The notes under the pieces are model-generated. The model had not been told where the DNA came from, made no database searches, and saw only the letters and a list, made by a program, of their open reading frames with translations. Of a stretch of 64,000 nucleotides of DNA, positions 1,805 to 63,692 are shown piece after piece. The stretch's first letter is position 1; the number at the start of each line of letters is the position of its first letter. The stretch comes from Octopus vulgaris (Eukaryota), in contig OX597816.1 of NCBI GenBank assembly GCA_951406725.2, forward strand, positions 66,092,001 to 66,156,000. Reading direction: 5' to 3'. A program made the translations under genes and the position numbers.

Positions 1805-2164
1805 ATATTAGGGAGTATATCCAAACTTACAGGGAAAAATTAGATCTAGGATTAAATAAAATTTCACAGTATAAATATAAATTAAATTAGAGATAAAACC
1901 ACTATTAGGCAACTCAAACAGTGATAGACATAAACCAAAACATAAAAGACAAAAAATAAATATAATTAATATAATATATAATATATATATGAAATATAAA
2001 ATTTAAAATTTAAAATTTATATTTTTATATTTTTAAATTTTTAAACTTAAAAATTTTTTTTTAATATAACTAACCAAAAAGTATAAAAAAGTTAAATATA
2101 ATATAATAAGTAATATCACTGTTTGAGTTGCCTAATAGTGGTTTTATCTCTAATTTAATTTATA
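1805..2164. mobile_element. Fold-back element in (TA)n, probably a PLE pLTR remnant
   Basis: 51-bp inverted repeat at 1876-1926 / 2114-2164; extra tail on the left arm starting TTAGGG; (TA)n on both sides; no HHR core seen. Confidence 0.6.
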
Positions 2165-2649
2165 TATATATATAATAAATGAAAAATGTTTCTGTTAATT
2201 ATGTAATAAAAATATATATTTTAGTCTCTTTAGTATTACTTTTTAAGGACAGCTCATTTATTAATAAAGTTAGCAACTTACTGGAGTTGTTATAACGCCT
2301 TTATGTTAACTGAAAGAATTAAATAAATGAAATTTTGCTTCACTGACTGCTAAATATGTGCGTTGTGTGGATCTTAACAGTAGTTTTTAATTGTAGCTAC
2401 ATTGAACTATTAAGTATATGTGTGTGAGTGTGTATATGTATATATACATATATATTGTATATGTAGTCTTTAAATTGTTGGCTGGATTAAACTCTCATAA
2501 GAAACATAGACACTGAAATAAAAACAAAAGGAAAAGAAAAAAATGCTCTTAGATTCTTATACATCAAAATCAACAGGAGAATCTATAACCATATATATAT
2601 ATATTATCATGGGAAAATGGTGAGGATTTTTCAGATTCAACATTAATTA

Positions 2650-2860
2650 CTGTTTCTAGCATAGGTATAAGGCCTGGTATTTGGGGGAAGAGAGTTAGCT
2701 AATACCATTGTCTCCAATACATAACTGACACTTTATTTCATTGACCCAAGAGGGTGATGAAAAATAATATTGACCTCAATGGAATTTGAACTCAGGACAT
2801 AAAGATCAACTATTGCAAAGCATTTTCTCCTATGCGCTAATGATTTTGCCAGTTCATCTC
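2650..2860 (-). mobile_element. SINE family 2 (tRNA head + Meta-like domain), decayed
   Basis: Reverse complement of GAGTTCAAATTCC..GAGGTC..CATC..GGGTCAATGAAATAA; matches 50191-50424. Confidence 0.7.
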
Positions 2861-4079
2861 CCCTATTCAAATGCTAATAATAGAGCCAATTTAACATATT
2901 GATATAGAACGATAATTGATATTCAGAAATATGTATGACATGCTTAAATTTTTCAGCTTATAATCAAGAAGTATATGACTTAATTTATCCAATAATTATT
3001 AGAATATTTAAATATTAAAAAAAAATCAAAAACAGTTATCAACAAAATTTATAATCAGATGAGGTCGTCAAAAATATATCTAGGAAAAAGGAAAAGTTAA
3101 ACCTAAAAGTGTCTGTCTGTTAAATCTTCTTCTTTGTATTTGTCTTTTGTATGATTCTTTCCTTTCTGTAAATATTCAGCTGCTTTAATTTAGTTTTATT
3201 TTGTTGTTTTATGTTTATTTACCATCCTAGCATTCATAAGCTGGGTGTGTAAATATTTATATTTGTTTCAGTCAGTGTTTTGTAGATGAATATCTAATCC
3301 TATTCCAGTACCTGGGTAGACTACTTGAGATGTTAGAGTAAATACCTCTCTTGACGACACAAGACATTGTCTGCAACAAGGCTTCAACCTGTGGCCTAGG
3401 AATAAGCATTTACTACACTTTTAACTCCAACTAACATTGATTTGTTCACAACCAACCCAGTCCTTTAGGATTCCAAATTATTTCTATATTGATGAGCTTT
3501 TCCAGTAGTTCACTGTGTTTTCTGTAGTTACATATCTGTTGCAGATACAATTCTTGATAACATTAAATTTTATGCTAGAAATTGGTGAGACAAGAATCAA
3601 AGTAAATTACTACAGGAGACTATTTTATACCTCAGACCCTTGATTAGCAGCCTTACCAAACTAATTGTTGTTTTAAATTCCCTTTCATACACAACAAAAA
3701 TAAGCAATAATCACTTATTTAAATTCGTTGTAAGCAATGTAAGTAGTATTAGTTCAAAACTGCATTTTGCATATCTTACTTAATGTAGATATACTGTGAG
3801 GAAGCCACAATATTATATAGATGTGCTACAAAGTTGCACTATGCATCAGTAGCATCACCACTGCTAGATGCTTGGCATCTGCTAGTGACACACTTCTGTG
3901 CTTTTTAGTACTATACATCTATACAAAATGCTTTCTCAAGACAAATACCACAGTATTGTGGCTTCCTTATAGTATATCCACATTAAGTAAGATGTACAGA
4001 ATGCTATTTATTTAAATGCCTTTCATTGCCAAATAAATCAGCTTTCACACTGATAATATTTGAAATGTTGGAATAAAAC

Positions 4080-4303
4080 AAATGGTTTCTGACTTAGACA
4101 CAAGGACAGCAATTTTGAAGAGAATAACTAGTTTGATTATTATCAACCTCAGTACTTGACTAGTACATTATTTTATCAACCCCAAAGAATGAAAGGTAAA
4201 ATTGACCCCAGCAGGATTTGAACTCAGGAATGTAAAGAGCCGGAACAAATACTGCAAAGCATTTTACCCAATGCTCTAACAATTCTGCCAAGCTCACTGC
4301 CTT
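4080..4303 (-). mobile_element. SINE family 2, decayed
   Basis: AAGGCAGTGAGC..GGCAGAATTGTTAG head on the minus strand; same body as other copies. Confidence 0.75.
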
Positions 4304-4579
4304 GAAAACAAATATTAAAGACAACAAACATCATACATTTAATTCCTGATTTAGACTAAGCTTTATTTCTCTCCTGTCATTAATAGCCTAATAATAATAA
4401 GTTATTTCTCAACTTATTAACCCTTTAAAAATTTCCACATTAGTATATGCCTGTTTTTCCCTGCAAGCATGGCTTAGAGGAATATGTTATTAAGACACTG
4501 TTTTAAAGTCAGATACCCAGGCTGACACTAAGCTTTGTTTTTCAAGAAACGGAGCTCCTATTCAATAATTTCATATATC

Positions 4580-60731: not shown

Positions 60732-60769
60732 TATGTATAAATATTTATGTGTATATAAGAATTTTTTGC

Positions 60770-60877
60770 ATAATAAGATAAAAAAACCATGGCTGTGTAG
60801 ATATTAGAGCATTTATAGATAGAAGGTCTTACAGCTGTTTCTAGGATATTTATTAATTATATCCCTTCGTTGGAGAT
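60770..60877 (-). mobile_element. Family F fragment with decayed HHR
   Basis: Minus strand TCT-CCAACGA-A-GGGATA..TATCCT-A-GAAA-CAGCTG-TA-AGA. Confidence 0.6.
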
Positions 60878-61297
60878 CATTATCATCATCATCATCATCA
60901 TCATCATTTAACGTCTGTTTTCCATACTGGCATGGGTTGGGTGGTTTAAGAGGAGCTGGCCAGCTAGGGTGCTGGCCAGACTCCAATTGTTTGTTGCACC
61001 AGCTGTTTTACGGAGTGTGTTGCATGCTTTTTATGTACCACTGGCAAAGGTGCATTTCTGTTGCACCAGCATGAGTGCATTTTATGTGGCACCAGCACCT
61101 GTAAAGGATAAGCCTGTATGTATGTATATCTCTAAGACCGTTATATCCAGTTTCAATTCTCATCTATACTTCTTTCATTTAACTCACACTTCTGCTTACA
61201 TCAACAAGTAAACCATTGGCATCTCAGAATCTCATCTCCACTCCTGTGTTTAATTTAAAACACTGTGCCTTTATATATATATATATATATATATATA

Positions 61298-61808
61298 TTT
61301 GTTTCAGTCATTTGACTGTGGCTAAGCTGGAGCACCACCTTTATTTTTAAACAAATTGACCTAGGACTTATTCGTTGTAAGCCTAGTACTTATTTTATCA
61401 GTCTTTTATGCTGAACCGCAAGGTTACAGGGACATAAAGACACCAACATCAGTTGTCAAGCGATGGTGGTGGTGGTAGGGGACAAACACAAACACACAAA
61501 CATATATATATATATCACGTGATCACATGACCGACCAGACCATCAGATGTTGCTACACATCGCTGGTCACAACACGTTTGCATTGTTTTAGCCTTCAAAT
61601 GATGCCACCCCGCTGGCTAAGCAAGCAAGCCAATATATATATATATATAAAACAGGCTTCTTTCAGTTTCCATCAACCGAATCCATTCACAAGGCTTTGG
61701 TCAGTCCAAGGCTATAGTTGAAGCACTTCTCCAAGGTGCCACGCAGTGGGACAGAACCCAGACCCATGTAGTTGGTAAGCAAGCTTCTTACCACATAGCT
61801 ATGCCCAT
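61298..61808 (-). mobile_element. SINE family 1 with a ~115-bp insertion in its internal (TA)n
   Basis: Insertion at 61516-61632 flanked by TA runs. Confidence 0.8.
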
Positions 61809-63350
61809 AGAATATTTGTTTCTTTACCTCAAAATATTATTCTCTGTTCCTCCTCTCCTGGAGTTTGTTTTAAATATATTTGTTTTATTTCTATAACACT
61901 CTATTCACCTTGCTCACATGAATGTGTGACATTGCTCTTTCATGGAAGATGTTGATATTTCTGGGTAAGTATCAGTTACTGAACTTCTCAGTCTTTATCC
62001 TATGATGACATGTAGCGCTCATCTGAGATAACATTCTCAATTGGTTTGCTAGCCTTAAAACAATATAGAGCCTGTTAGTTATGTAAGCAGCTTTTTGAGT
62101 AGAAAAGCTACAAAATGCATGGTAAAGCTCTAATATAAAAATGTAAGGTAGAGTAATACTGCTGTACTAAGTAATTTTAGACAGACAGACAGACACATAC
62201 ACAGATGCACGCGCATGCATACATAGACATACACACCCTTTTTAGGGTCTCTATAGAATAGACCCAAAAATATCTCCTGCACCAAAAATCATATTTTTTT
62301 TTCAGATGTCTGTGTTTTAAGCATCTATGATGCTTAAAACATTCTGCTAAAACAAAAACAAAAACAAAAAACAAAATTTGGTGGAGAGTGGGGGGGCCTT
62401 TTATCTTTTTACCAACATTTTTCTCTCGTGACTTTCTTTTGAAAATTCTTTTCAGATTTATGTTTTAAACATCTCAGACAATGATTCTTCAAAAATAAGG
62501 GTAACTTTTTAAAACATAAATCTGGAAAAAAATTTTGCTGAAAGTCAAAACTGAAAAAATTATAAGTGGGGGAGGATGAAAAATTCCTTCTTTCTCTCTC
62601 TCTCTCTCTCTCTCTCTCTCTCTCTCTCTCTCTCTCTCTCTCTCTCTCATACACACACACACACACACACACACACACACACGCACACTAAAATAACATT
62701 TTATCTCGAGTTTTAGAATCATAATCTATGGTGCTTAAAACATAGACATCCACCAAAATTATGGGTTTTGTTGCACTAGATCATTTCTAACTCTGTTCTA
62801 TAAGAATGATATGCATATATATATAAGAGACCAAAGTATACGTACACTGCTATATTTTTATATATAAAAAATACAAAAATGGGGCAAGAACACAAAACAT
62901 CCAGACAGACGATACAAAGAAAACAAGGACAGGTCATTCAGAGTTTACTTTCCTCAGTCAAGTTCCAGATCATCTTTGCAATTTTCAGCTAGTTATACTC
63001 CTTTTCTCACCCCACTTTAATTCTTCTATCCTTCTGCCTCTGCCTCTCTCTCTTCTCTCCCCATGTGACTGGTGTTCAGCCAAGCCTGACATTTCTTTCT
63101 TGGTTCAACTACCATCCATGCAACCTCTATATTCCTCTCTGTGCCTGTCAAATCTTATGTCCTTACTTCCACGCATGCCAGCTTAATTCATGTTCAAAGT
63201 TGTCGACAACCTTGAACATGAATAGTAAGTATTAAATATAATATTCTAAGACCTGGTTGAATTTATATTCTGATTTGATGAATTTATGGGGATTCCTGTC
63301 TCTAATGATACTTTGATACATACATACATATATATATATATATATATATA

Positions 63351-63692
63351 TTTCGCTTTTGGATTTGGTTTGCAAGATTCTTTATATGAGTTCGTGTGTT
63401 GAAGCATATTCTGTTGTGTCTGGGGAGAGTCATTTTCTTTTTGTGCCTTATAATGTAACACACTCACCGGTAAAATTTCCACTTATTTCTCTTTTATTTT
63501 TATTTTCCTAAAAATTTCGTTGTGTCTCGCAACCTTTTCAGTAGTTTTGACAATTGAAAAACTATTGAAAAGGTTGTAAGATGCAACAAAAATTTTAGGA
63601 AAATAAAAATTTTAAAAAAAGTGGAAATTTTACCTGTGAGTGTGTTACATAATAAGGCACAAAAAGAAAATGACTCTCCCCAGACACAACAG
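63351..63692. mobile_element. Fold-back HHR-like element (family M)
   Basis: Arms 63411-63548 / 63557-63692; tail 63351-63410; (TA)n on both sides; CTA-CTGAAAA-G-GTTG..CAAC-GAAA-TTTT-TAG at 63508-63544 on the minus strand. Confidence 0.82.

Follow-up and report, generated by a model that had tools for sequence, protein, structure and literature searches.

A 64,000-nt window of the Octopus vulgaris genome (the whole stretch analysed here: contig OX597816.1:66,092,001-66,156,000 of assembly GCA_951406725.2, with a GC content of 36% and many microsatellites) holds a series of inverted-repeat insertions, or fold-backs, which we attribute with a probability of about three in four to Penelope-like elements (PLEs): an enzyme combining reverse transcriptase (RT) with a GIY-YIG endonuclease would cut both strands of the target, two cDNAs would be primed at two sites on the RNA, and five of the families would probably have been copied from RNA circles. 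Taken part by part, we have little doubt that PLE machinery made the insertions, and we lean with less assurance towards a single RNA circle, primed twice, as the source of the retrozyme-like ones.

Inverted repeats lie at all eleven coordinates named in a preliminary description of this DNA, and we call its inserts E1 to E11 by window order; its estimate of about ten families also stands, the count being ten, all of high copy number, with E2 and E9 (10835 and 58165) as one family. As it had proposed, every insert follows a common plan of tail, arm, turn and tail-less inverted arm (the tail lies on the right in E5 and E7), and arm-to-arm identity in the window is 85-100%. All ten families combine a fixed 3' end, variable 5' truncation and an inverted copy without the tail. 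Each has two fixed ends, an outer and an inner one, 37-118 nt apart, which distance is the tail, while turn points range from about 100 to more than 3000 nt and single-arm copies are frequent. The window copies are as follows (fold-backs without strand, motifs with strand):

1805-2160: E1, fold-back of an AT-rich, apparently non-coding family, tail 1805-1869, this copy without a hammerhead
10835-11302: E2, fold-back, non-coding monomer of about 489 nt, tail about 86-93 nt; putative type I hammerhead with C3-G8 core at 11069-11132 (-)
18131-18469: E3, fold-back, tail 18131-18190, coding PLE reduced to a 3' stub; G3-C8 core in a hammerhead-like motif at 18339-18387 (+), mirror copy 18273-18321 (-)
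18802-19454: E4, fold-back, 534-nt non-coding monomer, tail about 109 nt; putative canonical type I hammerhead at 19219-19302 (+), mirror copy 19083-19166 (-)
33068-34165: E5, tandem-plus-inverted insertion, 361-nt non-coding monomer, tail 34119-34165; putative type I hammerhead with U3.G8 core at 33901-33952 (+), also 33540-33591 (+) and 33234-33285 (-)
38786-39160: E6, fold-back, non-coding monomer of about 460-525 nt; hammerhead motif 38946-39018 (+)
46665-47071: E7, fold-back, non-coding monomer of about 460 nt, right-hand tail (about 118 nt); 3' half only of a hammerhead at 46809-46841 (-)
47111-47324: E8, fold-back, old 3' stub of a Hydra-like coding PLE; hammerhead 3' half only
58164-58583: E9, fold-back of the E2 family; hammerhead 3' half only
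60522-60734: E10, fold-back, 3' stub of a Hydra-like coding PLE; hammerhead 3' half only
63352-63692: E11, fold-back, tail 54 nt, 3' stub of a coding PLE akin to that of E3; weak U3-A8 core

The whole genome (2.8 Gb, 227 contigs) was searched, and for each family the best 25-30 matches to the window copy were examined as loci (numbered L), which therefore represent close relatives and not a random draw. First-look candidates, which are not copy numbers, came to 1223 for E1, 3980 for E2, 1243 for E3, 2186 for E4, 1457 for E5, 555 for E6, 2903 for E7, 576 for E8, 1678 for E10 and 1455 for E11.

Start sites and target sites

The inner end lies at position 59-61 in 11 of 13 inverted copies of E3 (30 loci), at 54-61 in 16 of 17 of E11 (25 loci), at 64-65 in 7 of 8 of E1 (30 loci) and at 51-57 in 10 of 11 of E8 (25 loci); among 20 inverted copies of E10 (25 loci) it lies at 38 in six and at 57-61 in eleven. 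By distinct loci, 22 of 28 for E5 have it at about 318, which is some 44 nt from the outer end, and 15 of 20 for E4 have it at 95-126. In this tally E1 inversions are undercounted through masking, six short E3 loci were left out for longer fetches, L021 was misassigned (its arm actually runs 320-61) and the inverted arm of L317 was missed. Because non-inverted copies also begin at the inner site (E4 at L077, E5 at L099, E2 at L126), we regard it as a start site in its own right. Nor are the arms nested: the tail-less arm exceeds the tailed one by 197 nt at L320, 594 nt at L321 and about 550 nt at L298, each arm there having private sequence absent from its opposite, and in window E9 it extends about 60 nt further 5'.

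These features bear on the strongest competitor, in our judgement an unlikely one, in which PLEs make the insertions but the first cDNA folds back and is itself copied to give the second arm: a single priming, a hairpin turn, and copying back to the other DNA end. Many turns are indeed near-perfect hairpins with an overlap of a few nucleotides, and variants common to both arms would also follow. Two primings nevertheless fit better, given the starts at the inner site (in non-inverted copies as well), the non-nested arms of L320, L321, L298 and window E9, and the fixed inner end; copying back leaves the fixed position of the stop, at the tail, unexplained, and at the one mismatch within window E5 the inverted arm agrees with the inner tandem unit rather than with the unit that would have served as its template.

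Target preference differs among families. A TA or TAA tract lies within about 40 nt of the queried end in 28 of 30 loci for E3, 28/30 for E1, 21/25 for E10 and 24/25 for E5, and of the true end in 11/11 for E4, against a background of 9%; the association is weak in E11 (8/25) and E8 (12/25), and in the window the left flanks of E6 and E9 (the latter (TAT)n) and the right flank of E3 are not (TA)n. The proposed targeting to (TA)n holds for most families. E11 copies often lie outside microsatellites, and at such loci target duplications of 9-13 nt flank 10 of 14 copies (one being a simple AT run), and matches of at least 9 nt occur in 3 of 182 mismatched flank pairs. Many E3 copies (L001-L030) end 201-208 nt from the 3' end, directly 5' of hammerhead stem I; this is in part an effect of the 200-nt query, though an RT stop is also conceivable.

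Retrozyme-like monomers and coding stubs

Five families (E2/E9, E4, E5, E6 and E7) are, to judge from their letters, retrozyme-like: short non-coding monomers arranged head to tail, each unit carrying what motif and conservation indicate is a type I hammerhead. The longest ATG frame in any monomer has 47-94 codons. The monomer junction is crossed at 18 of 20 distinct loci in E4, 25 of 28 in E5 and 8 of 30 in each of E2, E6 and E7, and E4 and E5 copies that pass the monomer's 5' end enter the next monomer. When folded as circles (15 shuffles each), the monomers gave z values of -5.9 (E4), -5.8 (E5), -9.3 (E2) and -1.3 (E6). The E4 monomer (L078:1501-2034) has a word share of 0.55-0.93 in sequencing runs under seven organism labels, which suggests that it is present in related species; no RNA run was among those listed, which is evidence neither for nor against its transcription.

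In 17 of 18 E5 loci the two opposed arms belong to one subfamily type (chance 0.34). At three loci, variants seen nowhere else in the sample are carried by every unit on either strand: L103 and L113 in E5 (four copies each) and L069 in E4 (five copies). Private variants found in a single copy far outnumber shared ones (69 vs 8 in E5, 35 vs 3 in E4), which argues against efficient conversion. The agreement between arms and the locus-private variants together suggest that one RNA circle was copied by a rolling-circle route, with each strand of the cut target supplying a primer; one circle, read round and primed twice, would account both for the signs of two primings and for the single template lineage.

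The route we propose begins with staggered cutting of AT-rich DNA, (TA)n included, of which the E11 target duplications are an indirect sign. Each 3'-OH would then prime RT, the outer start site serving one and the inner start site the other, and for this reason one arm would carry the tail and the other would lack it. Both cDNAs would stop early and be joined head to head, producing a palindrome with a variable turn. For E2/E9, E4, E5, E6 and E7, a tandem transcript would be cut by dimeric hammerheads into monomers and circularised, and RT running round the circle would lay down one to three or more head-to-tail units per arm.

Hammerhead motifs are enriched over shuffled sequence, as the preliminary description had expected. 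A relaxed scanner, tuned after the motifs had been seen, gave five hits in the window (four in E2, E4 twice and E5, one elsewhere at 47784) and averaged 0.1 over 20 block shuffles; in forty 10-kb stretches (400 kb) at arbitrary round positions elsewhere in the genome it gave 16 hits, as compared with 1, 2 and 2 in three shuffles. A strict scanner found only that of E4 in the window, and no hammerhead was among the 150 of 216 Rfam matches listed for the window. The claim that most inserts contain a hammerhead holds at the level of families, eight of ten having a well-formed type I motif (stem I is weak in E1 and E11), and not at that of window copies, where the whole motif occurs in five of eleven: E2, E3 (a variant, with one A of the stem III palindrome missing in both arms), E4, E5 and E6. 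Window copies E7, E8, E9 and E10 retain the 3' half, E1 has none, and in E11 the core is weak and stem I measures 3 bp.

Counted by anchored regular expressions, from which damaged copies drop out, the cores read as follows: CUGAAGA in 58 of 59 E4 motifs, with stem III ACAAUUGU in all; UUGAYGA in 54/54 for E5, with the palindromic stems III ACCAUGGU in 40 and ACCUAGGU in 12; CUGAUGA in 14/14 for E6, CUGANGA in 15/16 for E7 and 14/17 for E2, CUGAAGA in 24/26 for E10, and GUGAACA in 37/37 for E3, with a 7-bp stem I. The family of a Neptune-like PLE in the window (described below) has UUGAUAA in 30/30. All four Watson-Crick 3-8 pairs occur among the hammerhead-like cores of PLEs: C-G in the L333 family, G-C in E3 (37/37), U-A in the window PLE (30/30) and apparently A-U at one locus, L350, although the A3-U8 expression returned no match there. 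A hammerhead C3G/G8C double mutant has cleavage partly restored in vitro, and our literature searches found no G3-C8 core in a natural hammerhead; U3-A8 and an extra base after A9 are already published as PLE hammerhead variants (PMC4209133).

Contrary to what had been supposed, the families are not all unrelated: the endonucleases of E3 and E11 are 49-55% identical, and E2, E4, E6 and E7 have in common a 3' module of RCCACYUG, an AT-rich hairpin, CCCU/CCUU and an AU-rich run, their inner sites likewise following a hairpin and a YCUUAU-like run (both motifs were identified visually in single copies). A tight module pattern gave 24 matches as compared with none in the control and revealed further families, some matches (L449-L453) resembling another repeat class. 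One such family is represented at window 34826-35020 by a twelfth window element, which carries the module and has 2016 first-look candidates; it lies directly upstream of the Neptune-like PLE, and its family was examined at L337, L457 and L480. Module-bearing monomer families with hammerhead motifs also occur at L441, L446, L454, L455 and L190, some as tandems of about 550 nt. A link of E7 to an endonuclease at L189 was rejected, that copy being an insertion into a truncated frame.

Four other families, E3, E8, E10 and E11, are, as their long copies show, 3' stubs of coding PLEs. E3 continues through a 1.25-kb untranslated region (UTR); beyond it lies an RT/GIY-YIG frame of 718 codons that has a CX3CxxC linker, RT motifs and the endonuclease, gives no Pfam match and is 20% identical to the window PLE protein. 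For the other three the endonuclease alone was seen: E11 runs into one related to that of E3 (L379); E10, at one locus (L424), has about 1.1 kb of UTR and then an endonuclease with the linker CxCX5C, which together with the lack of CCHH characterises the Hydra clade; and E8 has decayed endonuclease sequence at three loci (weak matches, E 1.5e-4 to 0.04), with a linker too decayed to read. E10 and E8 are only tentatively called Hydra-like. E1 extends for about 2 kb with no long frame and a 750-nt internal duplication; an rRNA origin was rejected, Rfam searches of three E1 loci having returned only hairpin or microsatellite matches of microRNA type. The expectation of PLE-made insertions, either truncated pseudo-long terminal repeats (pLTRs) or dedicated non-autonomous elements, thus holds in both its forms but for different families: E3 adjoins an RT/GIY-YIG frame and E8, E10 and E11 adjoin endonuclease sequence, whereas E2/E9, E4, E5, E6 and E7 have no such reading frame.

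Alternatives and counter-evidence

Slightly less probable again than copying back of the first cDNA is that the monomers are pLTR fragments of unsampled coding PLEs, their tandems having arisen, without any RNA circle, from serial insertions or from amplification of the DNA itself. Li et al. 2026 (10.64898/2026.07.22.740005) argue, in the accessible part of their preprint, for pLTR origin and local amplification; four other window families are such stubs, and only 30 loci per family were examined. On the other side, E4 and E5 copies run from the monomer's 5' end into a further monomer, PLE protein matches at these loci are separate neighbours or an interrupted gene, and units are homogeneous on both strands of an insertion.

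Miniature inverted-repeat transposable elements (MITEs) or fold-back DNA transposons driven by a transposase are very improbable. They would suit the long inverted repeats and TA flanks, and a 510-codon open frame at window 53154-54686, accompanied by an 88-nt sequence repeated directly at 52601 and 55014, is presumably hAT-type transposase-like (a Pfam search gave no match). However, neither the matching terminal inverted repeats (TIRs) nor the constant length of MITEs was found: lengths and turn points vary, the tail makes the two ends differ, and solo single-arm copies are common, which argues MITEs out; long copies enter RT/GIY-YIG frames, refuting this origin for E3, E8, E10 and E11, and the variable turn points speak against it for the remaining families. 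Assembly or library artefacts from inverted chimeric reads, which young arms with 99-100% identity might suggest, are just as improbable, since six window copies have arms that are 7-15% apart, independent loci on many contigs share the same inner end, and E11 copies are flanked by target duplications.

Several points weigh against twofold priming by a PLE enzyme and against the circle. The loci are best matches to the window copies, so the sample is not random. Shared variants could stem from local gene conversion or from subfamilies that were active at different times, non-nested arms could result from lopsided deletion of the palindrome centre, and at L113 one site is common to two of the four copies, a pattern that copying back could also give. 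In folded monomers of E2, E5 and E6 and in the PLE, the hammerhead is not the best structure, and the available part of Li et al. 2026 (10.64898/2026.07.22.740005) reports cleavage in only one of nine retrozyme dimers. Finally, no coding partner sharing the module was found among 42 endonuclease-linked 3' ends (0/42) in a search that combined PF01541 with the 3' ends of endonuclease loci; L457, a candidate for such a partner, was rejected as a nested insertion, the best-matching copies of its PLE ending about 190 nt before the module and none running into it.

Neighbouring elements, known systems and significance

The remaining features of the window are these:

3762-4004 and 12330-12656: two more non-SINE inverted repeats (SINE, short interspersed element), with no family assigned
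13629-14107: SINE pair, tail to tail, resembling a fold-back
34223-34333: short repeat, second copy at 60769-60877
34561-34641: tRNA-Met call
34826-35020: further element with the 3' module of the E2/E4/E6/E7 type, absent from the preliminary description
35034-37107 (+): 5'-truncated Neptune-like PLE with RT C-terminus, CX4CxxC linker, GIY-YIG and a 1-kb 3' UTR
37005-37047 (+): hammerhead-like motif of this PLE, U3-A8 core, weak stem I

E5, the short repeat, the tRNA-Met call, the 34826 element and the Neptune-like PLE form a nested chain in one TA region (33068-37107). The PLE is called Neptune-like since its linker fits the CX2-5CxxC that is common to Neptune and Nematis. Its family is young, with a 479-codon upstream frame overlapping a 781-codon RT/GIY-YIG frame by about 80 nt (L325:2768-6468), possibly a frameshift; the 781-codon frame is fully open in many copies, and the family's 3' UTR repeats the motif GATGACGTC. 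As the mobiliser that had been suspected it fares poorly, its 1-kb 3' UTR matching no window fold-back; a part for it is conceivable only through mobilisation in trans, where homology is not needed.

Fold-backs are about twice as dense in the window as in the sampled 400 kb: 13 that are not SINE pairs in 64 kb, as compared with 38, of which 6 and 12 respectively passed a strict filter for tail and TA. SINE pairs made up 10 of the 48 inverted repeats in the sample; we take the window SINEs to resemble octopus SINEs.

The insertion anatomy (PMC8557442; PMC11167929), the PLE hammerheads, opposite-strand hammerhead pairs and retrozymes are already known. PLE insertions have an inverted 5'-truncated copy and a one-sided tail (Craig et al. 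2021, PMC8557442, Fig. 2), and the octopus families share with them the inverted truncated copy, the single tail, the (TA)n bias and, in most of them, a hammerhead motif near the 3' end; they differ in tails of 37-118 nt as against 30-40 nt, and in bearing this signature also on tandem monomers devoid of open reading frames. The protein of Poseidon PAc from Anolis both cuts and extends the two strands in vitro, and RT starts at two sites on its RNA, whose spacing is the tail; a dimer is predicted (Frangieh et al. 2024, PMC11167929); two start sites defining the tail and AT-rich targets are common to it and to our families, but that work concerns a coding element, and the portion available does not treat inverted products or non-coding templates. 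Low-GC tandem non-coding monomers with type I hammerheads are likewise typical of metazoan non-LTR (long terminal repeat) retrozymes (PMC7229834; 10.64898/2026.07.22.740005), whereas the octopus monomers are longer (361-534 nt as against about 170-400 nt), dispersed in microsatellites and palindromic, with fixed tail ends. In the accessible text of Cervera and de la Pena 2020 (PMC7229834) the terms "inverted" and "target site" are absent, and in that of the preprint (10.64898/2026.07.22.740005) "tail" and "target site" are absent and "inverted" occurs once, within a reference. As in PLE hammerheads (Cervera and de la Pena 2014, PMC4209133), stem III is palindromic, an extra nucleotide lies between 9 and 10.1 and U3-A8 covaries, and opposite-strand hammerhead pairs 100-700 bp apart were known from Schistosoma (PMC4209133); most octopus motifs differ in a full or extended stem II, and E3 in its G3-C8 core. 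Chlamys non-autonomous PLEs such as MRC1 also form multicopy head-to-tail insertions (PMC8557442), but these have 3' sequence in common with an autonomous partner, and none was found for the octopus monomers.

What is new is evidence on mechanism: retrozyme-like insertions bear the two-start-site signature of PLEs. Retrozyme-like monomers with the tail-and-inversion signature and single-template homogeneity were not found in print, though the supplements of PMC8557442 and of the preprint and the octopus repeat library may hold the families; a published curated survey of octopus repeats (possibly of another genome) mentions neither ribozymes nor palindromes. PLEs have been proposed as the enzyme that moves retrozymes from co-occurrence and homology (PMC7229834; 10.64898/2026.07.22.740005, as far as accessible), and the route to inverted PLE insertions is still called unresolved in the available part of PMC8557442. 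Our analysis offers a testable link between the two questions, the mobiliser of retrozymes and the origin of PLE inversions: the retrozyme-like families are young (copies 98-100% alike) and intact PLE frames are present in the same genome, which makes an in vitro pairing of template with enzyme feasible.

A crude extrapolation from 12-38 per 400 kb gives some 0.8-2.7 x 10^5 hairpin-forming loci genome-wide, which may be a source of double-stranded RNA and which annotation is likely to have filed as MITE, TIR, SINE or unknown. Tentatively, and at a little less than even odds, we suggest that the genome holds about 10^5 PLE-made palindromes, many of them from retrozyme circles primed twice by a dimeric PLE enzyme at two modules made of a hairpin plus YCUUAU. 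If so, the tail would be the spacing between two enzyme-binding modules, and the presence of the module in at least four monomer families would mark it as a portable signal for one partner PLE; the insertion sites themselves would then be direct evidence for the mobilisation of animal retrozymes by PLEs, and the inverted structure of PLEs themselves would be explained.

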